This document shows, piece after piece, positions 29,726 through 64,000 of a stretch of DNA of 64,000 nucleotides. The notes below the pieces were generated by a model that worked only from the letters and a program-made list of their open reading frames with translations, made no database searches and was not told the DNA's origin. Both the position numbers and the translations under genes were made by a program. The DNA lies in NCBI RefSeq assembly GCF_018977255.1, contig NW_024704742.1, positions 8,062,001 to 8,126,000 of the forward strand, read 5' to 3'. The DNA comes from Callorhinchus milii (lineage: Eukaryota). Position 1 is the first letter of the stretch. Every line of letters starts with the position of its first letter.

Positions 29726-30048
29726 ATAATAATAATAATAATCCTTGCATTTGATATAGCGCTTTTCACGTCGGGAGGACGTCCCAAAGCGCTTCACAGA
29801 ATATACTGTAAAGTGAATTGACTGTATATTTGTGGGCGAATGCGGCAGCCAATTGCGCACAGCAGTGTCCCACAAACAGTCGTAGATTGAAAATGACCAA
29901 TTTATTATTGTTTTTGGTTTTGGAGGGATTATTATTAGGCTCTGTGTGGAGTAAGGAAACTTGCCCAAGGTTTCGCCCTCTGCCTGGAATTGAACTCAGG
30001 TCTCTCGCTTGCAAAGCGAGTGCTCTAACCACTGAGCTACAGGACTCC
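29726..30048 (-). mobile_element. Young SINE subfamily, copy A
   Basis: Diagnostics CCAGGCAGAGGGCG, CACAGAGCCTAATAAT and tail GGGACGTCCTCCCGACGTGAAA; only a few mismatches to copies B and C. Confidence 0.93.
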
Positions 30049-30477
30049 AGATGCTGCCTGTATCCAAGCAGGATATTTGGATTTGGATTCAGCGGTGATC
30101 AGCTATTTACATAAGTTTGATGCAAAATCTCGTTCGTATATACTTTCCTGAATTCACAACACTTGCCTGGAGACTTTAGTGTGTGGGAGAGCCTTCCCAG
30201 TGTATAGCGGATGTAGCTTGAGGAAGATATCAAACAGCAATTCATTCCTGCTAAAGACTTACCTGACTATGGGGGTAAGGGTGGGCAGAGACGCAGCCTG
30301 ACAGATCCCTTCCTCTTTGTGCACTTTCCAGCAGGACTCACTGAACAGGGATCAGGAGAAGGAATTGTGGCTGATTCTTCTCTTGCCTGGTTATAGGAAA
30401 GCTGAGTAAAATTGCAGTGGCTGTCACACAACTCAGCTGAGAATAGTCAACAACAACAACAACAAATTACAGTTGTA

Positions 30478-37298: not shown

Positions 37299-37625
37299 GT
37301 GGAGTCCTGTAGCTCAGTGGTTAGAGCACTCGCTTTGCAAGCGAGAGACCTGAGTTCAATTCCAGGCAGAGGGCGAAACCTTGGGCAAGTTTCCTTACTC
37401 CACACAGAGCCTAATAATAATCCCTCCAAAAAACAAAAACAATAATAAATTGGTCATTTTCAATCTACGACTGTTTGTGGGACATTGCTGTGTGCAATTG
37501 GCTGCCGCGTTCGCCCACAAATATACAGTCAATTCACTTTACAGTGTGTTCTGTGAAGCGCTTTGGGACGTCCTCCCGACGTGAAAAGCGCTATATCAAA
37601 TGCAAGGATTATTATTATTATTATT
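37299..37625 (+). mobile_element. Young SINE subfamily, copy B
   Basis: Same diagnostics as 29726-30048. Confidence 0.93.
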
Positions 37626-41052: not shown

Positions 41053-41378
41053 AATAATAATAATAATAATCCTTGCATTTGATATAGCGCTTTTCACGTC
41101 GGGAGGACGTCCCAAAGCGCTTCACAGAACACACTGTAAAGTGAATTGACTGTATATTTGTGGGCGAACGCGGCAGCCAATTGCGCACAGCAATGTCCCA
41201 CAAACAGTCGTAGATTGAAAATGACCAATTTATTATTGTTTTTGGTTTTTGGAGGGATTATTATTAGGCTCTGTGTGGAGTAAGGAAACTTGCCCAAGGT
41301 TTCGCCCTCTGCCTGGAATTGAACTCAGGTCTCTCACTTGCAAAGCGAGTGCTCTAACCACTGAGCTACAGGACTCCA
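41053..41378 (-). mobile_element. Young SINE subfamily, copy C
   Basis: Same diagnostics as copies A and B. Confidence 0.93.
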
Positions 41379-41914
41379 CTTCAATGAGAAAAACACTCAC
41401 CCCTCTGCAGAACACCCCGAATAGAATTTGTGCGCAAATTTTTATCGACAGTGAGCAAACCCGCTTAAAGCTTCCCGATAAGGCAAACGATAATTTGTTG
41501 GCAAGTTCAATAAGCAGCGAGGGGGAGAGGAAGGGAGCCATAGAGATAGACCCAGAGGATAAATACAATTAAAACATAAGCAGCAAAAAGAAACGGAATT
41601 GAATCAGAGAACTCTGATGATAAACAAAATAATTATAATAATAATTCTTGCATCTGATATATTGCCTTTCGCATTGGGAGAATGTCTCAAAAAACTTCGC
41701 TGGACACAGTGGGAAGTACGTGTGTGTTTGTAGGTGAATGTGGTGGGCAATTTGCACGCAGCAATGGAAGTGAGCGATCAATTTGGGGGATTGTTGGCCA
41801 GGATACCTCAGTACAGCAATTCCATGCCGAAGAGAGCAGAGCAAAGGGAACGATCGACTGTGTTTAACTTGCTAGAACTGGAGCAGCACTGTCCGAGAAT
41901 CCACTGAAGAACGA

Positions 41915-50276: not shown

Positions 50277-50362
50277 CTATTGATTCACATCCGGATGTTT
50301 CAACTGGGTGAAAAAAAGAATTGCTGGGAAGTTCAGAGAATTTGTAATATTGTAGGGATTAC
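50277..50362 (-). CDS. CENPC: CENP-C terminal coding exon
   Basis: Acceptor CTCCTTTTGCAG|GT; encodes GNPYNITNSLNFPAILFFTQLKHPDVNQ followed by TAG at 50279-50277. Confidence 0.92.
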
Positions 50363-53300
50363 CTGCAAAAGGAGAAAACAATTCAGATATACTGATTTTT
50401 TGTTAAAAAATAAAATATTTTCTAATGGTGTGTATTGAATGCAACAAAAAAAAAGTTTTGGTGGTGGTGGAGGAAGGCAGTCCTGGCCAGTGACCGGATG
50501 TAAGGTAGGAAGGATAACTTGTGGATCGAACCTGATCCTAAGGTTGCACACGTGCGATGTGTCTGAGGGATAGGCAGAGAAGGATAAGGAGTTCAGAACC
50601 ACAGGTGAGAAGACCTCGACAAAAGCCAAGGAGGATGGCTTCTGTCTTGTCCAAGTTCAGCTGCAAAACGTTGGAACTCATCCAGCCTTGATGTCTGATA
50701 AGCAGGCAGTTAGTACACCGGCAGCACAGGGCTTGCTACTCCAGGAGGAAACATAGTGTTGGCCAGACTTGTGGAAGTTGACCCAATGTCTATGGATGAC
50801 ATAACCAAAATGGAGCATTGAAATGAGAAATAGAAGAGTGTGGAAACCAGACTGAAGGGGCTCGAGAAGGAGAAGTCTCGATAAGACGTGATAAGATGCT
50901 GGGAGGAAAGGTGTCAGCAAAGTTGTGTGACTGGCATCAATGTGTTCTAGAAGGGAAGGACAGGTTTGAGATGGGCCAGTAAGTAGCAACGGTTGACTGA
51001 TCAAGTGTGGCGTTTTGGAGGGGTGATGCTCGGGGTTTTGAGGGGGAGCGGGACGGTGCAGGCGGGGGGGGGGAAGGAGGCAGAGAAATTTTCACTTACC
51101 GGGGGGCACACAGAAACAGTCCCCTTGACTGAGATTATACAAGTTGTTGTTGATGGAGACTTTAATATGTCCTTGAATAATGTAAAATAACTGTAACAAA
51201 AAAATTATGATTATTTAGGCATCCGCCTCGTTCAGTTTGTAAGCAGTCTCGCCCGAGTGAGAGGTTGTCAGGGACTTGGGACCCATATAGTCTATGCTGA
51301 CATGTCAATGGTGTGCTACATTGTTAGAGGTTTGCATTTGTATAGTATCTTCCACGTCGGCAGGACATCTCAAGGCACTGACAACCTTCAGATGAACTGT
51401 TAAATTGTGGTTGTGTCTGCCTGACATTAAAGATCCCAAGGCACAGAAGAAGATTCTGGCGGTGTCCTAGCCAGATACAATTTGTCATTCACTTCATGAC
51501 TGTCCTGTAGCTCAGTGGTTAAAGCACTCGCCTCGCAAGCGAGAGACCTGGGTTTGACTCCCGGCAGGTCAGGGTGAAACCTTGGGCAAGTTTCCTTACT
51601 CCACACGTCTGATAATAATCCCTCAAGAAAAAAAATAATAAAATTGGTCACTTTAATCCATGACTGTTTGTGGGACGTTGCTGTGTGCAATTGGCTGCCT
51701 CGTTTGGCCCACAAATACAGTCAATTCACTTTACAGTATATTCTGTAAAGAGCTTTGAGACATCTCGAAGACTGGAAAAGCGTTATATCAAATGCAAGGG
51801 TTATTATTATTATGGCTGTGAAACATTGCAGCGCGTAAATTGTTTGCCACCTTTGTCTACAAATACAGTATTTGCAAATCTTGGAAAGTGCTTTGTGAAT
51901 CATTGTGAAAAAGTACTTCATGGCGATGGTCTTTAGCCATTTCAACCCTCCCTCCCACTCGCACTCTGACCTCTCCATCCACGGTCTCCTGCGCTTACTG
52001 TTCCAATGAGCCACAGCGCAGCTCGAGGAACAATCTGCCAGGGCCCTTACAGCCCTCTGGCCTCAATATTGATTTCAACAATTTCAGACCATAACAGCTC
52101 ACCTTCCCCTCCCCCTTTTCTGTGACCATTCCCATATCATCCTGGTCCCAGACACGCCTTTTCTCTCCCTGATCTGCCTGTTTTGTTGCAAGTTTTTTTC
52201 CCCCCACTTTTGTTCTGCAGTATTAACACCTCTATTCCCCTGCTTTGTTACAATCCCCCTTTGTTTTTGCACCATTAATACCTATTTAGCTCATCATCCC
52301 CCGTCCTCTACCCCATTTTCTCCCTTGTCATCCTTGCCCTGCCTCTCCTCTTTCTGTTAGCCCTTAAAAGCCTCTCCCTCCCAACGTGCCCCAGTTCTGA
52401 CAAAGGATCGTGGACCTGAACCGTTGACTCACTTTCCTTTCTCCATAGATGCTGCCTGACCTGCTGAGTGTTCCCAGCGACTTCTGTTTTTGTTTTCAGG
52501 AATAATAAGGGAATGGTTACTCTATTGGGCGCTAATTATAGACCACCAAAGAGTAGAAATCAGACAGCAGGTGAGATTCGTAAGCAAATCTGAGCAATGT
52601 GCAGGAATAATAGTACCATAATAATCCAATAAGATGTTAAAAAAAGGATTTTTTTTCTGCAATGTGACCATAATTACTTTCTATATCAGTATGTTTCTAT
52701 TCCAAGGAAGAGGCAGTGCTTCATCTAGCTCTAGGAAATGAAGAGGGGCAAGTAAGAAAAATAAAATAATAATAATAATCATCCTTGCATATGATATAGC
52801 GCCTTATCCCGTCGTGAAACCCACAAAATAATGGAAATGAAGTAATGGAAAAGAGAAACATTTAGGAAACAGTAATCGTATCATAATTTGGATCAATATA
52901 AAGATCAAAGAGGGGAGAACTGTAAAGATAAAGGAAACGGACTGGAAAAAGGGATGTGTTTAATGTATATAAAAGGAACTAGTCTAAATAAATTAGTGAC
53001 AAAAATTGGCAGATAAATTCAAAATATCAGACGGATGAAACATATTTCAACAAAAAGCTTGGTTGAATAGATCAGTGGCCTTCATAATATATTGTCAATG
53101 AGTAAAACCAAGGAAACACTTTTTTTAAACAAATATCCATAGATACCTGCAATATTTTAAATTGCAAGTGGGAGATTAAACTGATGTAATGGAATTTTAA
53201 ACAGCGCATCACACTTGGAAAACAGGACGCAGAACATAATGCAGAGGAACGATTCATTTACTCACCATGGTGTCTCCACACTCTCGCTGAATGCCTTTCT

Positions 53301-56300
53301 CTCTGAAAGGTCCCAGAAACAGTTTGCCGCAAGCAAACGTGTCGAGATCCAAATCCTTGCAAATACCAAGCGACGTATCGTTCTCATTGTAATCCAACTT
53401 TAAGGGATATTCGAAATCATTCGTTCCTGAAATTCCAACACAGTCTGGAAGTTCACAACAAAACAAAGTGGAAAAATTAGGACTCGTTACAGTACCTTTT
53501 GGTATCAAAATGCCGATTGCTGGGGATGACACAACTCTGTTCACTTTACACTCTCACCATCAACTACGACAACAATTTACACTTAGGGTATTTCATATAG
53601 AATCAGTCTCAAGCGGCTTTACAATAGGAACCTAAGCTGGGAGGCAGTTGGTATTTCTTTGGCGGGGGTGGGGGGCAAAAAAGATGTCCAAAACAACAAA
53701 AAACGAGAAAGGTCTTTCGGTGTGATTTGAAATTTTAAGCAAGAATGGGCAAGGCAGGAGGATATCAGTACAGCTCCACAGGGAAGTGGCAAAGTTGCTG
53801 ATGGCTTGCATGCCAATAGTGGGGTGGAAGGCATGAAGCAGGCTGACATCAGAGTTGTGCTCTTCATGAACACAGCGCTACATAAAAGCAGCTCAGCAAT
53901 TCTCTTTTGAGTATTTACTGGGGACACTGCTGATGTCAGGAAACGCCATGTACCCATGCTCTATGCGCGGGAGACAGACAGTGAACACAGAAGTACTTGA
54001 ATACTGCTTATACATGTTATACTGGACTCCGCTGTATACTGAAGTGCAATATAATTGGGTCGTGCTTCACAAAGATAAGATGATAGACAAAAATAAGAAT
54101 TTATTGACAAAAATTATTAGGAGGAACTCTGACTTTGAAGTATTTCGCAGTTTTCTTCTGTGCTCCATACAGAAGTAGGCTTTTGCTGTTGGAACGTATT
54201 TTCATAACTTTCAGATGTTTGCTCCGTGTAGGTTCCCCCTAGCCAGACAATAAAACAAATTGAAGGTTTTGAAAACGTGTAGTTATTCTGAATGTCATGT
54301 CTGGTACTTTCTAGAAATTAAATCAAAGTGAAATAGAGTGACTAAAAAAAAAAAACGATTCTGAAGTTAAAAATCAATTCAGCGACAAAAAGAAGGCAAT
54401 TTATTTGGGGATTAGGCAGGAGTGTTAGGCAGGATACCAAGAGAAGCTCCCTTTTCTTTTCAAATAATGCCATGTGATTTTAATATGCACCTGAACAGGC
54501 AGGCAAGGCCTTGGTTTGACATCTCATCTGAAAGACAGAACACCAAAAAAAAAACAGCCAACACGCTGCCGAGAGGTATTTGACCTAATCCCAGAGTGCT
54601 GAGGCGCACATTGGTTAAGGCTTCAGGACCTGAGATTCTACGACTGAAATTTCACTAGATTGATCATCGCAAATACTGGTAAGATTCCTGCTATTTAACC
54701 AGTCACTTGAATGAGAAGAATCCTTGCTTTCAGAGACAAGTCTACTCTTCCAAGTTAATGAGCTGGACTGGTTAGTTCTCATAGAAAGTGCCTATGAGTA
54801 TTGCAGACAGAAACAGGACAACCGAGACCAACACACACCATTGCCATCCGTTTCAGTACTGTTTGTGGTACATTTCAGTATTTGAAGACCGTGGTCAAAT
54901 TTGAAAGCGTGGTCAAAGAGGAAAATCCTAAGACAGACCTTGAAGAAGGCAAAGGAAGTGGCGAGGTGAAGAGACTCCAGGATGGACTTCCAGAGAATGG
55001 GGGCAGAAAGGATGAACACCTGACCGCCGATGGTGGGGCAGGGGACAGGAAGCAGGCCAGTGCCTGCTGAGTGTAGGGTGTGGGCATGGTGGTAGTTTTT
55101 TAGTAGGTAGAAGTAGGGTGGGGCAAGACTGTAGGGCGAGGATGAGGATCTTGAACTCAATCTCTGAGTAATGAGGAGCCACTGAAGCCAGGCAAGGATG
55201 GGGTGATAGGGTCTTGTAGGGTGGTGTGGGACAGGACACGAGGTGCAGAGTTCTGAATGGTCTGCATCTTGTGGAGGGAAGAAGTGGGAAATACAACAAG
55301 CAAAGAGTTTCTGTAATCAAGCCTGTACGCAATAAAAGCATGGATAAGATTCTCAGGGGCCTGAGGGGAGAGGTACTGGTGGAGGCAGGTAATGTTTCAC
55401 CCACAAAATACAGTCAATTCACTTTACATTATATCCTGTGAAGCGCTTATGTTGCGGAGGTAGGGGAAAGCTGAACAGGTCAAGGCATAGATGTGGGATT
55501 TAAAGAACAGTTGAGAGTTAAACAAGACACAGAGATTCCGCAATGGCTCAGTGAGTGAACATCCGTATCAGTATCGTTCACCAGAACACCAGGGCTTAAA
55601 GGGTTAAATTATGAGGACAGTTTTCATAAACTTGGTCTCCATTCCCTTACGTTTAGGGGGTGATCAATTTGAGGTGTTTAAAATAAAAAAGGGATTTGAT
55701 AGGGTAGATACAGAGAAACTATTTCTTTGGTGGGGGATTCCAGAACATGGGGGCATAATCTTAAAATTAGAACCAGGATATTTAGGAGTGAAATCAGGAG
55801 ACAGTTTTTCACCCAAATGGTAGTGGAAATCTGGAACTCTCTCCCCAAAAAGGCTGTGGTTCTAGGATCCATTCAAATTTTCAAGACTGAAGTGGATAGA
55901 TTTTTGTTAGGTCGGGGTATCAAGCGATACGGGGCAAGGGCGGGTAATTGGAATTGAGGTACAAATCAGCCAATGATCTTGTACAATGGCAGAAGAAGCT
56001 CGAGGGGCTGAATGGTCTACTCTTGTTCCTATGTTCCCTGTAGATTCACACTGTGAGCACCTGAGGAGAGAAGGCGCTGACAGGAGCCAAGCGGGAAAGC
56101 CTCAGTTTTGTAAACATTCAACTGGAGAAACTTAGCTCTCATACAGGTCTTGGTGTCAAACAGGTTAGAGCAGCCGTAGTCCGAATTGAGGGTGGAGGGC
56201 AAGTTAGAGTTGGGTGTCATCTGCATATATGGAATTTATCTCATGTCTGTGGATGACATTACTAAACAGGCACACGTAAAGAGTAAAGAGAAGTGGACTA

Positions 56301-59300
56301 AGGATAGAGCCCTGAGCAATGCCACGGAGGGGTAGCAGTAGCACGGGCAGAGACAGTACAGCAGAGCTTCTCCATTTTGGACTCGAGATCTCCTTACATT
56401 TGGAACTGAAAGAGAGGTTGGGTGAGGCACGGGAAGGGTGGAGCAGCTGGTTTGTGGTGAAGAGGAGCCTGGAATTATCCTTGGCCTTCAGGATGACCGT
56501 GGAGTAGATGCACAATTTGGCTGAGATAAAGGCCGAGTGGTGGCACGCACCTGTGCCTTCAGCTCCCCTCTCGACTCTCTACCCCCTCCTCGCTCCCTCC
56601 CATCCCTCCCCTTGCCCTGACCATTTCCCCCCTGCTCGGGTCCCGACCCAATTGTCCAGTGCCTTGGGAAGTCCTCCCGACATGAAAGGCGCTCTATAAA
56701 TGAAATCTTGTGGTTGTTGTTGAGGGAAGAGGGGTGGGTGTACCAGGGGCACTTGTGGAAGTGGGAGACAGTGTGTGAGTTGTTGGGGGAAAGGTAACAA
56801 GGATATTAGAGGAGTTGTGAATGAGAGTGACTCTCCTGGTGCACCAGAGAGGGGCCCAAAAAATGCAAGTTGTTGTTGTTGTCGTCAAGCCTCAGCGCTT
56901 GCCAACCTGCGCCTAATACTCTCTGGAATTAGGTTAGCCCTTGCTACTGCCACCCCCTCTTCACCTGACCTCCAACTTCCTCTCCCTCCAACCCCATCTC
57001 CCTCTTCTCTCACCTCCATTACTTCCCATATAAAGCCCATCACCCCCTTCCTTGACCCCATCCCTACCCCACTCCTTATCTCCCAGCTCCATCTCCTTGC
57101 CCCGTTAACAGACATCGTCAACCTCTCTTTGTCCATCAACACAGTTCCCTGTCTTAAAAAATAGCCGTCATCACCCCATCCTCAAAGAACTTTCCCTCTT
57201 CCACGTACTCTAGGAATGCTATTCCATTCCAAATACAGAAATTTCTTTGGAGGCAGATCTTCTGTGCTAAATATTCACTCATACCTGACAGAAGTATGTG
57301 ATGGTCACTGTTGGGATATGAAGCCTGGTTCGCTGGCCCAGGTCCACTTGCATTCAACAAGAACCTTAAAAATAAAATTCCTCGTTACTGCAAAGTCACT
57401 CAAAGATTGCATTTTTCAACTGAACAAAATTAAAAGCAATTCTATACATATATTTTGACACAACTCATCAAGAGTTAGACAATGCAGACTTATCGAATGG
57501 TATGTGTGCATAACGTCAGTCGATTTTATTATGCTGATCAGTATTCCTAAAGTCTATTAGCCTAAATGAATGCAGTGTGCACAATACATAAAATATATAT
57601 TTTTTAAAAAGTATGAAAATCTAAATATACAAACTGCATTTGGGTGAGTTGAACAGATCCTGAGATGTTTGAATCAAAACATTGTCGGACTTTAGAAATA
57701 CTGCAGATCAAAAAAACACGAACAACCTGACTCCAAATGGATTGCTAGCCAAGGAAAAGTTACTTAAGTAATTGGTTAAAAGTCTCAACGTAGAACCAAA
57801 TTATTTTGATTAAACTTAAATTTAAACTTACAAATTCATTCTTTGCTGCTTAACTTCCTCGTCTCGTGAACCAGGATTAAGTCCTGATTCACCACTATCT
57901 TCTATCGTTTCCCTCAAATTCTGCCAGGGTTCTGTCTGACTCGCAGAATCTTTCTGTCCACTTTCAGTGGTTTTTAAAAACCATCTCTTTGATGTACTGT
58001 CGTACACTGCGTCATGTGCAGGGATACTCGTATATCTTGGATTGGGATTACTGGAAGCTGCTGGATATGTTTCAAAGATTTCGTTCGACATTGTTTTGGA
58101 TGCTGAAGACAAGAGGAGATTCCTAGCTTGCCTAGAAATTGCAATAGGTTTTTCAAATGCGCTGAACCTCTTCAATTGCTTGATACGGTTTTCATTCAGT
58201 TTGTCAAGACTCTGAGGACACCGTTTTGGCCTTTTTGTGGCTGGGTACAAAGCAGAGGGGTTTTCCTGGTCCTTCGCAAGCTCAGGAAATGCACGCTTTC
58301 GTGGCACTGATGACTTGAATAGATGCTTTCCGCTCTGCGCTGTGAGTGCCCCACTTATTGTATCATTTTCATATTGTACCGCCGGTTGGGACTGGATATC
58401 GTAAAAAACAGATATAGAATCGTCATCATAATCAAGCTCATCCCCTGCGAAATCAGCATCCTCATCTGAACTAAGCGGTTGTGGTACCACTGATTTAATT
58501 TGAGCACTCGATGAATCTCTTTTAGACAGGTTATATATCTTCGTCTTCTGTGCTGAGGATTTTCCTGCCCTGTGCTTTATTTTGTTTTGTGATGGAGGAA
58601 GCCAAGAGGAATGACGTGAAGACTTTGCTTCTCTTCGGGAGGAGACAGGGGGACTGTAGTCTTGCTGAGCTACCTTCCACCACTGGTTTGGGGGTCTGAT
58701 ATGACGTCCAGATATTGTATAGGTCTCATCGCTGTCAGGGTGGAGATCACTTATGCTGTGGAAATCGTCTTCGTGAAAGACAGAAGGGTTTATCTGTTTC
58801 GTCAAATAGCCCGACTGTGTTCGTTCAGTTTTCTTTGTGTCCGTTTGTTTCATTTTGGCTGGAATAGAAGGCAAAATTCAGTTAATTTAGATTAGTTCAA
58901 CAAAACCTCAGTTGTCAAATTAAAAATACTACTCGATCAAGATAGCTAGGACTGTTGTAGCTCGTTTCATTTCCAGCACCAGGCTCCATGAGAGAACCTA
59001 TTCCGCCATTTCTGCCCAGCTCCAATGGCTCCCTCATTCCCCAGCAGATCAAGTCCAAGATCCTCATTCTCACTTTCAAATCCCTCCGCGGTCTCACCCC
59101 ATCTACGATTGCGATCTCCTTCAATGCCACCAACCTCTTGCTCCCATCACTCAACAAGCACCAGCCTGTTTCATGCCACCCACCCTGTCTTCCCCACAAT
59201 CAGCATGCAGGTTTTCAGACATTCTGTCGCACTCTCTGGAACTCTACCATCATACTCCTTCCCTCACCTCGTTCAAGGTCGATCTCAAGACGTACCTCAT

Positions 59301-62300
59301 CTGACAATGCTTTCAGTCATCCTTCCCCTTCTCACTCTCTACCCCTGGGGCTCCCAGCTCGGCTCAGGTGCAGCCAGGAGTATCAAATGTTTTGAGACAT
59401 TCTCCTTATGCGAAGTTTAGATCGTATTACTGTATTGTATTCTGTTGTTATAGCTACATAATGGTAGCATAACCAGCCTCCCCCAAAGTCATGATATTCA
59501 TGAAAGTGGACAAATAGAAGGGAGCATTGTTTCAATTTCCCCACATTCTTTTCTGCATCTTTTTGAAAAATAGATTAATTCCTTGATCGTTACAGATTCA
59601 CATTAACATGACCATCATTTTACACAGTCAATTCACTTTACAGTATATCCTGCAAAGCACTTTGAGACGTCTTGAAGACACGATAAGGCACAATATCAAA
59701 TGCAAGGTTTATTATTATCAATCGTGAACAAATGAACCAAAAGTGCAGTGGTGTCCGGTGAAATGTCACCCACCCAATAATGGGTCAAATTATTTTTAAC
59801 GTTTAATGTAAAAAGCAAAATGTAATTTTTATTTTAAAAGCTCATTTAAGTGAAAAGTAAAAATCTATTACCTGATGTCTTTGTATTTTGCGTTCTGGTT
59901 TCTGCACTTGGAGCTCTACCAGACCTTTTTTTAGACCTATCTGTGGGACAATTTACAGACCCTCGAGATGCCAACTGTCTCTTAGAATTTTCAATTGTCT
60001 CTTTCAATTTTTTAGCTTGGTTTGCTTTCTTGACATAGACACGAGGCTCTTCCTGCAATTTCTCCTGATCCTGTACTTCGGGCATAGCCACAGCTGTTTT
60101 TTCGGGATGCTTTCGGGGTCTTCCACGCTTCTTAGGCACGCTGGAATTCTTTCCTTGCTTAACCGGCTTCCTGCTTATCACCTTGCCTTTTCTGACGTGC
60201 GATTCAGAGCAGGAGCTCTTGGGGTCCTCCCACATCTCACACTCAGATTCGTTCGATATTGGTGTTGAAGTCCTGAAAACCGTGTGTTTTGATGGTGGAG
60301 GCGTAACAGCAGGTCTGTGAAAGCCATGATTTATTTTTTAAATGAAAATAATTTAAAAGCTTTATTATTAGCCATAATAATAATATGCTAATTAAGCTCA
60401 ACTTTTCTTAACACAGTAAAACACCAATAACTCGTCACTCCAAGGAAAAAAGTGCTGAGTGACTAGTTATCCGGGGTGGCCTATCTTGTGACTGGTGCGA
60501 GCAATCAGTGGCGGTTGGGCGCACATACACTGCAGAGACCACTGGTCTATTGAAGGCCCACGGTATGGCCTCCTGCCCTATCCTGTCACACGTGGGATGC
60601 AAGTCAGGAGAGGGAAGCCTCAGAGACCAAGGTCTCTGCAATGGATCTGACCATGTGGGCCCAACTTCCTCCGAGCACCTGCACCAGTCACAGGGTAGGG
60701 TGGGAGGCCTCTGTCATGCAAGATGGCATCTTATAGGACAAGTTATCTCATCAATTTTACATTGTAAGTACTTACAAGAGTTTCTGGAATGTGACAAGTT
60801 ACGTGTTAAGTGGATTGACAAATAAGTAACTAATTAAGATCGCTGCCTTCCTTGCGACTTAACCCTACCCTCCCCATCCCCATCCCTCCCGATCCCAACC
60901 ACCAGCTCAGGTGTGGGTCCCTGACTGTCCAGCATTTTGGGACGTCCTCCTGACACGAAAGGCGCTAAACATATGTAATTTGTTGTTGTTGCTGTAAAGC
61001 AAAGTACCTTATTAACGTTGTATGGGAAGCTGCCAGGGTATTGGCAGTATGGCAGGATAACTACTGACAAGTTATGCCAGGGTGTTGTGATCAGGAGTTA
61101 ACTGGGACAAGCTTTTCCTTGTTTTCCAGTAAACTATTTGCTCACCACCGATACTTGCCAAGGAAGATACAAGTTAGTGTTAGTTGACAGCCGATGTGCA
61201 GCTATAGACTATGAATAGCAATAACAGCAAATCAAGCTCCTCTCTCCTCAGTAAAGATTAATTTGCAAGGGACAGTTTTTTTGTATTCTAGTCTGAACTT
61301 GACAAGATATGACAACAGAGGTTAAAAGCACATACAAGGAACATATGCATATTGGATGCAGCTCAATTATTTTTTGCAAAAAGCAACAAGGAGCCTGAAA
61401 TTTATAAATCCAGGGAGTCATAATGTGCATATGACTCCTCCTCAAACTCAAAACGATCGACGATCTTCCTCGACCCGCTGCAAATTTCTAACGTGTTATA
61501 CTTTTATTCCATGTTACCCACTCACATACCTGGACCATCACTGACATCATTCTCTCTATGAAATGGTATATTTTTAAAATTAGTTGTAATAATAATAATA
61601 AACCTTGCATTTGATAAAGCGCCTTATCACGTCTGAGCTTTGAAATGAAGTTCAGCGACTTTATCTTTTGTAGGTGAACCAGCAGTCAATTTCCACACAG
61701 CAATGTCCTGCAAAATGACCAATTTTAACAACCCCCAAAACCACTGCATAACAACAGAATTGAACCGTAATTACAGACCCATAAAATCCAAACCCGCACT
61801 ATGATTAGAAAAAATGACCTCACCTTCCCCTGAAGTCCCAAATTGAAAGCAAATTTCTCAAGGGCATAAACTTTCATACCTTTTTGATTTGATCGTTACT
61901 GGATGTCTTGAAAGGGCTGAAGATGATTTTCCAGAAATTACGTATTTTTTCCGATTCTCCAGCTCAACGACTTGGTCGTTTTCATCATCATTCCCGCCTT
62001 CTGAGGCTTCAGATTCAGCTAATGGAATAGACTTTGACTGTGCACGGTTACTGGGACCGTAATCACCTGCAAAGAGCAGGACAAATGAGGGATTGCATCG
62101 TCTCAATCATATTTTAGAAATATACAGTGAAAATAATAATAATAATCCTTGCATTTGATATAGAGTCTTATCAAGTCTTCGAGACGTCTGAAAGCACTTC
62201 ACAGAATACACTGTGGAGTGAATTGACTATATTTTGTGGGCAAAACACAGCAGTCAATTGCGCACAGCAGTGTCCCACAAACAATCGTGGATTGAGTGAC

Positions 62301-63367
62301 CACATTTTTTTTGCAAGGAAGGAATTATTACCCCCGGAAAAGCGATCTGCCAATCGACTAACAAGCGGGTTCCAACTTACTGCTGGGAAACAGAGGCGTG
62401 TGGTGTAAGGAAACTTGCCCAGTGTTTTGCCCTGCCAGGAATAGAACCCAACTTTGCCTGATATGCTACTTATTTCAACCTCAATACAAAAATGAAATAA
62501 TGAACTAAATGAAGTACATTTGTTAAGAGAACAGCTTGCAAATATAAAGCACTGGTAAGACCTGACAGAGCTTGTACAACTACAGTAGTTCTATCCTATC
62601 CACTGGAGCTTTGGTTAGAGTGGATATCTACACCAGGCAGACAGGCTGGTCAACCATCAACTATTAATGTGACCAGCCAACAAAATAAACCTATTACACA
62701 TTACAATATATTTTGTGAAGCACTTTGAGATGTCTTGAAGACATGATAAGGGGCTGTATCAAATGCAAGGATTATTATTATCAATAGTAAATAAATGAAC
62801 CAAAAGTGCAGTGGTGTCCGGTGAAATGTCACCCACCAAATAATGGATCAAAATGTCTTTAACTTTTAATATAAAAAGCTCATTTAAGTGAAAAATAAAA
62901 ATCAATTACCTGATGGTTTTGTATTTTGCGTTCTGGTTTCTGCACTTGGATCCGGACTACCAGGTCTACCAGACCTTTTTTTATACCTTTCTGTGGGGCA
63001 ATTTATAGACCCTCGAGATGCAGACGGTCTCTTAAGAGACGCTTTGGAGTTTTTAGCTTGGCTACCATTCTCGACATAGACAGGAGGCTCTTCCTGCAAA
63101 TTCTCCTGATCTTCCTCCTGATCCTCTACTTCGGGCATAGCCACAGGTGTTTTTTGGGGATGCTTTCGGGGTCTTCCACGCTTCTTAGGCACGCTGGAAT
63201 TCTTTCCTTGCTTAACCGGCTTCCTGCTTATCACCTTGCCTTTTCTGACGTGCAACTCAGAGCAGGAGCTCTTGGGGTCCTCCCACATCTCACGCTCAGA
63301 TTCGTTCAACATTGGTGTTGAAGTCCTGAAAACAGTGTGTTTTGATGGTGGAGGCGTAACAGCAGGT
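50277..63367 (-). CDS. CENPC: Centromere protein C (CENP-C), 3' portion; 9 exons: 63367-62910, 62066-61880, 60314-59872, 58858-57832, 57364-57285, 54238-54134, 53444-53266, 51190-51100, 50362-50277; 5' exons outside window
   Basis: All exons have AG/GT boundaries and join in compatible phases (2|1|2|1|2|1|1|0|1) into one open frame of 2656 nt. The C-terminus reads KPTSVW..CGKLFLGPFREKG..LFYIIQGHIKVSI..GDCFCVPPGNPYNITN..ILFFTQLK, matching the Mif2/CENP-C cupin (human TGKLILGPQEEKG..VFYV..GDSFYVPSGNYYNIKN..LLFTQIK). The large exon contains SGRHIRPPNQWW. Confidence 0.9.
51100..51190 (-). CDS. CENPC: CENP-C cupin exon 2 (91 bp)
   Basis: Acceptor TTTTTTGTTACAG|TTA, donor CCCG|GTAAGT, phase 0 to 1; encodes LFYIIQGHIKVSINNNLYNLSQGDCFCVPP. 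Confidence 0.92.
51503..51812 (+). mobile_element. tRNA-headed SINE, short form, in CENP-C intron
   Basis: Full head-to-tail match. Confidence 0.9.
51935..52500 (+). mobile_element. Penelope-like element 3' fragment (GIY-YIG C-terminus, pyrimidine-rich UTR, degenerate hammerhead)
   Basis: Frameshifted HFNPPSHSHSDLSIHGLL..LEEQ..LQPSGLNIDFNNFRP* typical of PLE GIY-YIG ends, followed by AGTT-CTGACAA-AGGATC..GACCT-GAACC-GTT-GACT and GATGCTGCCTGACCTGCTGAG. Confidence 0.75.
52500..53010 (+). mobile_element. Degraded CR1 ORF2 endonuclease-region fragment
   Basis: VTLLGANYRPPKS and later remnants resembling LDLVLGNE..HLGNSDH. Confidence 0.55.
53266..53444 (-). CDS. CENPC: CENP-C cupin exon 1 (179 bp)
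   Basis: Acceptor CTTCCAG|AC, donor ATG|GTGAGT, phase 1 to 0; encodes LGICKDLDLDTFACGKLFLGPFREKGIQRECGDTM. Confidence 0.9.
54134..54238 (-). CDS. CENPC: CENP-C exon (105 bp), pre-cupin segment
   Basis: Acceptor TTGTCTGGCTAG|GG, weak donor CAAA|GTCAGA, phase 1 to 1; KPTSVWSTEENCEILQ aligns with human QPTRVKDPETREIILM. Confidence 0.7.
54890..56540 (-). mobile_element. Fragmented L2 LINE with nested SINE piece and CR1
   Basis: GIAQGSILSPLLF..YADDTQL (56204..56515) and ORF2-end motifs at 54900-55380. Confidence 0.8.
55580..56040 (+). mobile_element. CR1 LINE 3' fragment nested in L2
   Basis: FEVFKIKKGFDRVD..RTWGHNLKI..FFTQMVVEIWNSLP and tail GGGCTGAATGG..TTCCTATGTTCC. Confidence 0.88.
56545..57215 (+). 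mobile_element. L2 tail(s) and L2 ORF2 fragment
   Basis: 56555-56722 closely matches 11133-11340; LDPIPTPLL..DIVNLSL at 57050-57130. Confidence 0.75.
57285..57364 (-). CDS. CENPC: CENP-C exon (80 bp)
   Basis: Acceptor TTTTATTTTTAAG|G, donor TCAG|GTATGA, phase 2 to 1; encodes FLLNASGPGPANQASYPNSDHHILLS. Confidence 0.7.
57832..58858 (-). CDS. CENPC: CENP-C large central exon (1027 bp) with RxxxxPxxWW motif
   Basis: Longest ORF in the window (57828..58874). Acceptor CCTTCTATTCCAG|CC, donor AATTT|GTAAGT, phase 1 to 2; YTISGRHIRPPNQWWKV at about 58670-58720. Confidence 0.88.
58960..59430 (+). mobile_element. Old L2 3' end
   Basis: QQIKSKILILTFKSLRGLTP..TLWNS. Confidence 0.75.
59872..60314 (-). 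CDS. CENPC: CENP-C exon B copy 2 (443 bp, AT-hook KKRGRPRK)
   Basis: Same splice sites as copy 1 (TTTCACAG|A, TCAG|GTAATA), phase 2 to 1; open frame overlapping ORF 59846..60235. Confidence 0.8.
60428..60801. mobile_element. Fold-back MITE-like element (family 1) in CENP-C intron
   Basis: Imperfect terminal inverted repeats TAACTCGTCAC-TCCA / TGGAATGTGACAAGTTA, plus internal inverted arms GTGACTGGTGC/GCACCAGTCAC, GTTGGGCGCACAT/ATGTGGGCCCAAC and TGCAGAGACC/GGTCTCTGCA. Confidence 0.65.
61880..62066 (-). CDS. CENPC: CENP-C exon A (187 bp, acidic/Ser-rich)
   Basis: Acceptor CTCTTTGCAG|GT, donor AAAAG|GTATGA, phase 1 to 2; encodes GDYGPSNRAQSK..ENDQVVELENRKK..IKSK and bridges the two exon-B copies in frame. 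Confidence 0.8.
62132..62450 (-). mobile_element. tRNA-headed SINE, long form, in CENP-C intron
   Basis: Family body and tail. Confidence 0.85.
62910..63367 (-). CDS. CENPC: CENP-C exon B copy 1 (458 bp, AT-hook KKRGRPRK)
   Basis: Acceptor TTTCACAG|A, donor TCAG|GTAATT, phase 2 to 1; open frame overlapping ORF 62902..63492. An in-frame alternative acceptor (GTTTTCAG|G) lies 42 nt further in. Confidence 0.8.
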
Positions 63368-63481
63368 CTGTGAAAGCCATGATTTATTTTTTTTAATGAA
63401 AATAATTTAAAAGCTTTATTATTAGCCATAATAATAATATGCTCATTAATCTCAACTTTTCTTAACACAGTAAAACACCAA

Positions 63482-63855
63482 TAACTCGTCACTCCAAGGA
63501 AAAAAGTGCTGAGTGACTAGTTATCCGGGGTGGCCTATCTTGTGACTGGTGCGAGCAATCAGTGGCGGTTGGGCGCACATACACTGTAGAGGCCACTGGT
63601 CTATTGAAGGCCCACGGTATGGCCTCCTGCCCTATCTGGTCACATGTGGGATGCAAGTCAGGAGAGGGAAGCCTCAGAGACGAAGGTCTCTGCAATGGAT
63701 CTGACCATGTGGGCCCAACTTCCTCCGAGCACCTGCACCAGTCACAGGGTAGGGTGGGAGGCCTCTGGAATACAAGATGGCATCTTATAGGACAAGTTAT
63801 CTCATCAATTTTACATTGTAAGTACTTACAAGAGTTTCTGGAATGCGACAAGTTA
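63482..63855. mobile_element. Fold-back MITE-like element (family 1), duplicated copy
   Basis: Near-identical to 60428-60801. Confidence 0.65.
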
Positions 63856-64000
63856 CATGTTAAGTGGATTGACAAATAAGTAACTAATTAAGATCGCTGC
63901 CTCCCTTGCGACTTAACTCTACCCTCCCCATCCCCATCCCTCCCGATCCCAACCACCAGCTCAGGTGTGGGTCCCTGACTGTCCAGCATTTTGGGACGTC

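Follow-up and report, generated by a model that had tools for sequence, protein, structure and literature searches.

The CENPC locus and its duplicated exons

The window, i.e. the whole 64,000-nt stretch of Callorhinchus milii DNA that was analysed, carries on its minus strand exons whose translation, starting at residue 471, agrees at every position with the RefSeq models XP_042192647 (884/884 residues) and XP_042192650 (849/849), exon C matching Callorhinchus milii proteins at 100%. The product displays a CENP-C_C cupin (Pfam PF11699, 60.6 bits for a cut-off of 29), its five PDB matches are all cupins of CENP-C, Cnp3 or Mif2 (7x85, 7by0, 7xhn, 6o2d and 2vpv), and a central RxxxxPxxWW motif, RHIRPPNQWW, is found in exon C at residue 884 of the C. 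milii model P0002. Neither C. milii nor the elasmobranch records checked (Mustelus, Narcine, skates) show the C-terminal CENP-C motif (RxxxxPxxYW, ~100 aa before the cupin), whose lack in the elephant shark had already been noted by Kral (PMC4830207). Given that another nucleosome-binding motif is present, CENP-C orthology stands despite the missing one and, judged by these sequence matches, the gene is Callorhinchus milii CENPC, as the initial annotation had proposed.

CENP-C is a single-copy inner-kinetochore scaffold, and its fast evolution is one of the chief arguments for centromere drive. Among the chondrichthyan CENP-C records that are long enough, all show one RxxxxPxxWW of the central type and none shows the C-terminal motif, so that the loss looks class-wide in chondrichthyans, a mirror image of birds.

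Self-blastn gives as the top repeat of the window a match of 59634-60946 with 62697-64000, at 90.1% over 1338 columns, which continues up to the end of the window. The period is 3053-3063 nt and the repeat holds exon B twice, as B1 and B2 (Table 1). B1, A2 and B2 are all bounded by AG and GT on the minus strand, and the conceptual translation of B1, A, B2 and exon C is free of stops. The two open copies with intact splice sites, first described at a ~3054 bp period, were thereby reproduced by blastn, alignment and translation, and the phases (exon B from 2 to 1, exon A from 1 to 2) make A+B a phase-symmetric pair, again as described. All three indels between B1 and B2 (12, 9 and 12 nt) keep the frame whereas those between the flanking introns of the two units measure 1 and 25 nt, which suggests that selection holds both copies in frame. 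With 10 K/R and 10 D/E, exon A is neutral overall and has an acidic run; exon B is basic. A1 and A2 differ at four residues, near the exon A end.

Table 1. Features of the CENPC duplication in the window (positions in the window)
Feature	Position	Strand	Details and evidence
Unit 1, visible 3' part	62697..64000	-	contains exon B1, extends past the window; blastn 90% to 59634-60946, alignment
AT-hook-like KKRGRPRK of B1	63163..63186 (approximate)	-	
Exon B1	62910..63367	-	458 nt, phase 2 to 1, 152 codons; basic, 30 K/R, 19 D/E
SINE 3' fragment, junction between units	62676..62790	+	where copy-to-copy homology stops; 84.8% to counterpart, up to 89% to other SINE copies
Unit 2, whole	59634..62696	-	~3.06 kb: intron, exon A2, intron, exon B2, intron stub; placed from period and end of homology
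Exon A2	61880..62066	-	187 nt, phase 1 to 2, acidic run; spliced A-to-B contigs in runs X5, X9
Exon B2	59872..60314	-	443 nt, phase 2 to 1, 147 codons; basic, 34 K/R, 16 D/E; B2-specific contigs in runs X1, X4, X5, X9
AT-hook-like KKRGRPRK of B2	near 60110-60133	-	
SINE 3' fragment, distal end of unit 2	59621..59726	+	
Exon C	57832..58858	-	1027 nt; carries the sole RxxxxPxxWW (central-type CENP-A nucleosome) motif
Exon D	57285..57364	-	80 nt
Alternative exon	54134..54238	-	105 nt, in-frame, before cupin; in RefSeq isoform X1, absent from isoform X2
Three cupin-domain exons	50278..53444	-	53266-53444, 51100-51190, about 50278-50362 (stop); Pfam, PDB, RefSeq match

In the two-unit RefSeq models the doubling is in frame, with the exon order A1-B1-A2-B2 and no third recent unit. 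A1, lying before B1 and outside the window, is the second, upstream exon A that had been predicted; the idea of more than two units finds no counterpart in these models, and a weak hint against it comes from sequencing run X5, in which the depth of shared segments is ~2x that of unique ones. In the UniProt entry A0A4W3HF62, from a different model set, the order is B1-A-B2 and its A is A1-type. Single-unit models (A1+B2) are found as well, namely XP_007897159/A0A4W3HGS4 and A0A4W3HF60; exon B of XP_007897159 and A0A4W3HF60 begins B2-type and is not hybrid. The species has a 68x PacBio assembly (excerpt of PMC8302630), from which the RefSeq models probably come.

The models XP_042192647 and XP_042192650 are named 'serine/arginine repetitive matrix protein 1', a label which hides CENPC in the annotation, and the elasmobranch orthologues go under 'uncharacterized' or 'mst101(2)-like'. 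Furthermore, the C. milii models are without ~85 N-terminal residues found in the elasmobranch, frog and echidna orthologues, which we take to be the Mis12-binding end. Since a spliced contig of run X9 has 1598 nt 5' of exon A, about 375 beyond what the codons of the model need, the models may be 5'-truncated. A 26-nt segment bounded by AG and GT (61530-61555, minus strand, phase 2 to 1, ENDVSDGP) lies inside the A2-B2 intron; it is in no model, no RNA support for it was seen, and it could be a chance segment or a vestigial exon. A tblastn search of the A-B2 intron with the elasmobranch inter-block segment gave no sign of a vestigial exon, the best E outside the exon A end being 0.28.

Divergence between the two copies

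The exon B copies differ at 33 of 434 sites, against 16 of 632 for the upstream intron copies (p = 1.5e-4), a contrast that initially suggested positive selection. This was rejected, synonymous and downstream intronic sites being equally raised. Indeed, the downstream intron differs at 10 of 120 sites (p = 0.004 against the upstream intron) and the synonymous sites of the exon B 3' half at 5 of 43 (p = 0.008), and the excess is thus not protein-specific. Between B1 and B2 there are 26 nonsynonymous and 7 synonymous differences (dN 0.083, dS 0.074), corresponding to a dN/dS of 1.12 with a Fisher p of 1.0 for 144 codons of one paralogue pair, a comparison of little power; in the exon B 3' half the ratio is 1.22, not significant.

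Along the repeat, differences per 100 nt number 2-4 in nine windows and 19, 6, 10 and 20 in the next four. One 100-nt window concentrates 19 substitutions beside an indel, and a run of 97 nt (63157-63253), which contains the B1 KKRGRPRK motif, is identical between the copies. This patchwork is best fitted by an older duplication whose copies gene conversion has made alike in part. Given the low power of the comparison, these figures are also compatible with a burst of selection on the diverged 100-nt patch.

Both copies in sequencing runs and a single-unit transcript

Four of the 24 listed runs (X1, X4, X5 and X9) were compared with the window as Logan contigs, which are graph products whose depth measures neither copy number nor expression and is taken as a hint only. 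X1 and X4, whose kind is not on record, were counted as DNA-like since they cover introns; X5 and X9 are RNA-like, being spliced.

Both the B1-specific and the B2-specific 3' halves are found in the two DNA-like runs (2/2). The B1-specific half displays a bin depth of 18.7 in X1 and a contig with 0 differences in X4, and it is observed in X5 as well, a B1-specific contig at 62921-63144 being shared by X4 and X5. The contig ends at 62921, 63144, 63115 and 59883 coincide with the k=31 forks predicted from the identical runs between the copies. In X4 the depth of shared segments (11.6-11.7) is not twice that of unique ones (7.4-11.8). In X5 the depths are 38.5 for B1-only, 33.2 for B2-only, 61.6 for the shared A and 5' part of B and 37.9 for exon C, compared to 4.8-11.7 for the three intronic contigs listed; this is the pattern expected if nearly all transcripts had both units. 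B1 and B2 are thus about 1:1 in the spliced RNA of X5. The B1-to-A2 splice joint is not among the joints listed, where SINE matches dominate at 85% likeness; the shared X5 contig begins 4 letters before exon A, as would fit two different upstream exons.

The X9 profile is that of a single unit. One spliced contig of 3401 nt at depth 83 joins the 5' exons to A, B and C with no fork, and the depth in B1-specific bins is 0.26-0.97. Its exon A has A1 letters and its exon B is hybrid: it agrees with B1 at offsets 34, 58 and 60 and reads as B2 from offset 112 onward. Since one unequal crossover between units would give both the unit loss and the hybrid exon, and splicing alone would not suffice, we infer an unequal-crossover deletion allele, the single-unit form being known from one contig of one run. 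Assemblers of this kind could prune a minority form, here the two-unit one, from the graph. Of the proposal that copy number is polymorphic there hence stands a lead, the single-unit hybrid-exon transcript of X9 (one of the two RNA-like runs), with this single contig as its basis. Allelic differences from the window are seen at 60073 (Q/E in B2; X4, X5 and X9), 63294 (R/C in B1; X1 and X4) and 58197 (exon C; X4 and X5).

A regulated splicing module, in which all animals would have two units and some tissues would skip B1+A2 by joining A1 to B2 into a short isoform beside the long one, is permitted by phase symmetry. It would agree with the single-unit A1+B2 models (P0001, P0003) and with a single-unit form that is seen in RNA only, both DNA-like runs having both copies. 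However, the three B1-type letters at the start of the X9 exon B would also need a converted B2 allele, and X5 shows no sign of skipping, its B1-only depth being about equal to that of exon C. We regard such a module as quite improbable.

The same data bear on a false duplication, i.e. two haplotypes of one locus assembled in tandem. The upstream intron copies differ by only 2.5%, single-unit protein models exist and X9 shows one unit, all of which such an artefact could produce. Yet between the 3' halves of B1 and B2 there are three indels and, within a single 100-nt window, 19 substitutions, while exon C, over 1027 nt, is 0-1 letters off in the listed RNA contigs. Both 3' halves are present in X1, X4 and X5, which come from two studies; the tandem order B1-A-B2 recurs in a second model set (P0005), there are two versions of exon A, and the 68x PacBio assembly (excerpt of PMC8302630) speaks against an artefact too. 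A false duplication is therefore highly improbable.

SINE fragments at the unit ends

A SINE 3' fragment is found at either end of unit 2. The two fragments are 84.8% identical, no closer to each other than to other members of the family (up to 89%), which fits a crossover joining two SINEs. As the family makes up 18% of the window, a breakpoint would lie in one of its copies 18% of the time by chance, and the fragment at 62676..62790 is a possible crossover site with modest support. This evidence consists of the two fragments within the window, the far end of unit 1 lying beyond it. Elsewhere in the window, three SINE copies of ~325 nt (29726-30049, 37299-37625 and 41053-41379) are 98-99% identical and represent a recently active subfamily.

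Origin and content of the duplicated module

Exon B aligns with residues ~190-407 of the same protein with a score of 119 (0/1000 local shuffles; 0/2000 for the 3' part). This upstream block, which lies outside the window, has FEFEINDDESFCFESWF and aligns with elasmobranch blocks that appear to resemble the human FIIDE and W317 motifs. In human CENP-C the FIIDE motif binds CENP-LN (excerpt of PMC9235857) and W317 binds CENP-HIKM (excerpt of PMC4494010). The shark upstream block is comparable with this human PEST/CCAN-binding region; B1 and B2 have lost its Phe and Trp. With a tetrapod motif profile built from 13 sequences no C. milii block reaches at least 5 bits, and the upstream block is assigned through the elasmobranch alignment. 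On the strength of these alignments, exon B is a degenerate paralogue of the upstream putative CCAN-binding (FIIDE/W) block.

In Mustelus, Narcine and skates the protein has two such blocks, separated by an A-like segment (shuffles of A1 against it: Narcine 0/200, Amblyraja 8, Mustelus 15), and two frogs also have two blocks. Given these elasmobranch blocks with their A-like segment, and the upstream alignment of exon B, the recent doubling sits on an older duplication. B may be either the orthologue of elasmobranch block 2 or a chimaera-specific copy of block X, two placements that a tree of 11 motif blocks, where long branches meet, does not separate (22% of bootstrap trees).

The KKRGRPRK motif, an RGRP core with basic flanks, occurs at residues 531 and 746. 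Pfam AT_hook (PF02178) gives 12.8 bits for the whole protein, under its cut-off of 17.4, and hence we call the motif AT-hook-like. RGRP is absent from all the elasmobranch orthologue records checked. Based on motif and charge, the module may bind DNA. Neither this motif nor the descent of exon B, through an earlier duplication, from the putative CCAN-binding block figured in the initial annotation.

Comparison with other CENP-Cs and interpretation

A precedent in grasses had been invoked for this locus, and it holds as invoked: an excerpt of Talbert 2004 (PMC549713) describes repeated gain and loss of CENP-C exon pairs, acidic plus basic (exons 9-10 and 11-12), some of them positively selected, and an excerpt of Du 2010 (PMC2816676) places the duplicated exons in a DNA/RNA-binding region. 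As in grasses, the tandem duplication of the shark exon pair lies in a middle region of low conservation, in a CENPC gene that is single-copy. In both, an exon with an acidic run (in the shark neutral overall) is paired with a basic one, an older duplication lies beneath, and there are gains, with a possible loss in the shark. In contrast, the shark unit is 215 aa and not about 60, positive selection was not detected, and the unit derives from a putative CCAN-binding block; the likeness to the grass exons that we draw is one of layout. Yeast Mif2 offers another comparison, since its AT hook aids the binding of A/T-rich CEN DNA, human CENP-C having none (excerpt of PMC5710141). Mif2 and the shark protein share an RGRP core with basic flanks near RK clusters, but the Mif2 hook follows the CENP-C motif whereas the shark copies precede the central motif by 138 and 353 residues, are doubled, and fall under the Pfam cut-off.

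These parallels make an adaptive expansion conceivable, in which the extra AT-hook/basic module would be favoured for tracking a changing A/T-rich centromeric satellite, as in the suppression of centromere drive, perhaps making up for the C-terminal CENP-C motif lost by cartilaginous fishes, whose proteins have a single RxxxxPxxWW (PMC4830207). The positively selected and DNA/RNA-binding grass exons (PMC549713, PMC2816676, both as excerpted), the support that the AT hook gives Mif2 on A/T-rich CEN DNA and that human CENP-C does without (PMC5710141, likewise), and the KKRGRPRK that is identical in both copies with no RGRP in the elasmobranch orthologue records checked all point that way. However, neither the overall dN/dS of 1.12 nor the 1.22 of the 3' half is significant and synonymous and intronic sites are as diverged, the motif identity falls in the 97-nt identical run as conversion would give, and one RNA run (X9) shows the single-unit form at high depth. 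An adaptive expansion seems to us rather unlikely, and the tie to satellite turnover that had been suggested for this locus draws no support from the dN/dS of 1.12 (Fisher p = 1.0).

We favour, with a probability of about 0.68, a tandem duplication of a ~3.06-kb A+B segment in the single CENPC gene that is tolerated and drifts nearly neutrally. The duplication would have arisen by unequal crossing-over, possibly between SINE copies, and would have survived as a phase-symmetric addition of 215 low-complexity residues to the linker that joins the putative CCAN-binding block to the CENP-A-binding motif; it would be tolerated because A+B is phase-symmetric and because that block, that motif and the cupin are left single. 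Both copies would then be translated and drift nearly neutrally, gene conversion holding most of the unit ~97% alike, and this same ~97% identity would let an unequal crossover collapse the array to one hybrid unit. A side effect would be two AT-hook-like basic modules (four per dimer) instead of one (two per dimer), and the extra module should tune the affinity for A/T-rich DNA with kinetochore architecture unchanged.

The elephant-shark case shows that the CENP-C linker of a vertebrate accepts in-frame insertions of 215 residues and that plant-style exon-pair amplification recurs in animals; as the evidence stands, it points more to tolerance than to an arms race. Should the single-unit allele prove real, module number could be tested directly within one species against centromere binding or transmission. 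A bolder reading, which we consider distinctly unlikely, is that elephant sharks segregate CENP-C alleles with one or two AT-hook modules, 215 aa apart, each a CCAN exon turned to binding A/T-rich DNA in a lineage without the C-terminal CENP-C motif, whose copy number tunes centromere binding. If this is true, a DNA-binding module of a vertebrate kinetochore would vary naturally in dosage among the animals of one species, and the case would form one layer in a tendency, shared across vertebrates, of CENP-C to grow by internal duplication.

Repeats in other vertebrate CENP-Cs were sought by split comparisons, since full-length self-blastp gave no off-diagonal matches even for the known duplicate, an artefact of the method. 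Internal repeats were found in 13 of 41 other CENP-C-like proteins of at least 700 aa, a count read without a control set of long disordered proteins, and three of these 13 have recent repeats (at least 75% identity over at least 45 aa), namely Bombina (114 aa at 88%), budgerigar (62-aa period, 79-84%) and the caecilian Geotrypetes (45-aa period, 83-86%). Further linker repeats are those of the hagfish Myxine (405 aa at 61%), Spea (46 aa at 65%) and coelacanth (68 aa at 49%). Like the shark repeat these lie in linkers, but they are known at the protein level alone and none has RGRP. In bobwhite, an excerpt of PMC5592930 reports a putative segmental CENP-C duplication of 3 of 13 exons. Of the proposed convergent vertebrate case, the in-frame modular duplication is hence upheld and its special standing among vertebrates is not. 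No other holocephalan is among the 20 named of 94 non-self HMMER matches, word-index protein searches returned C. milii matches only, and no description of the elephant-shark duplication was found in the literature searched, mostly non-subscription papers. As for the frogs and the hagfish, Bombina (P0009) and Discoglossus (P0011) have two putative CCAN-binding blocks of the FIIDE/W type and the internal duplication of Myxine (P0053) spans 405 aa; these doubled blocks and the hagfish duplication may raise CCAN valency.
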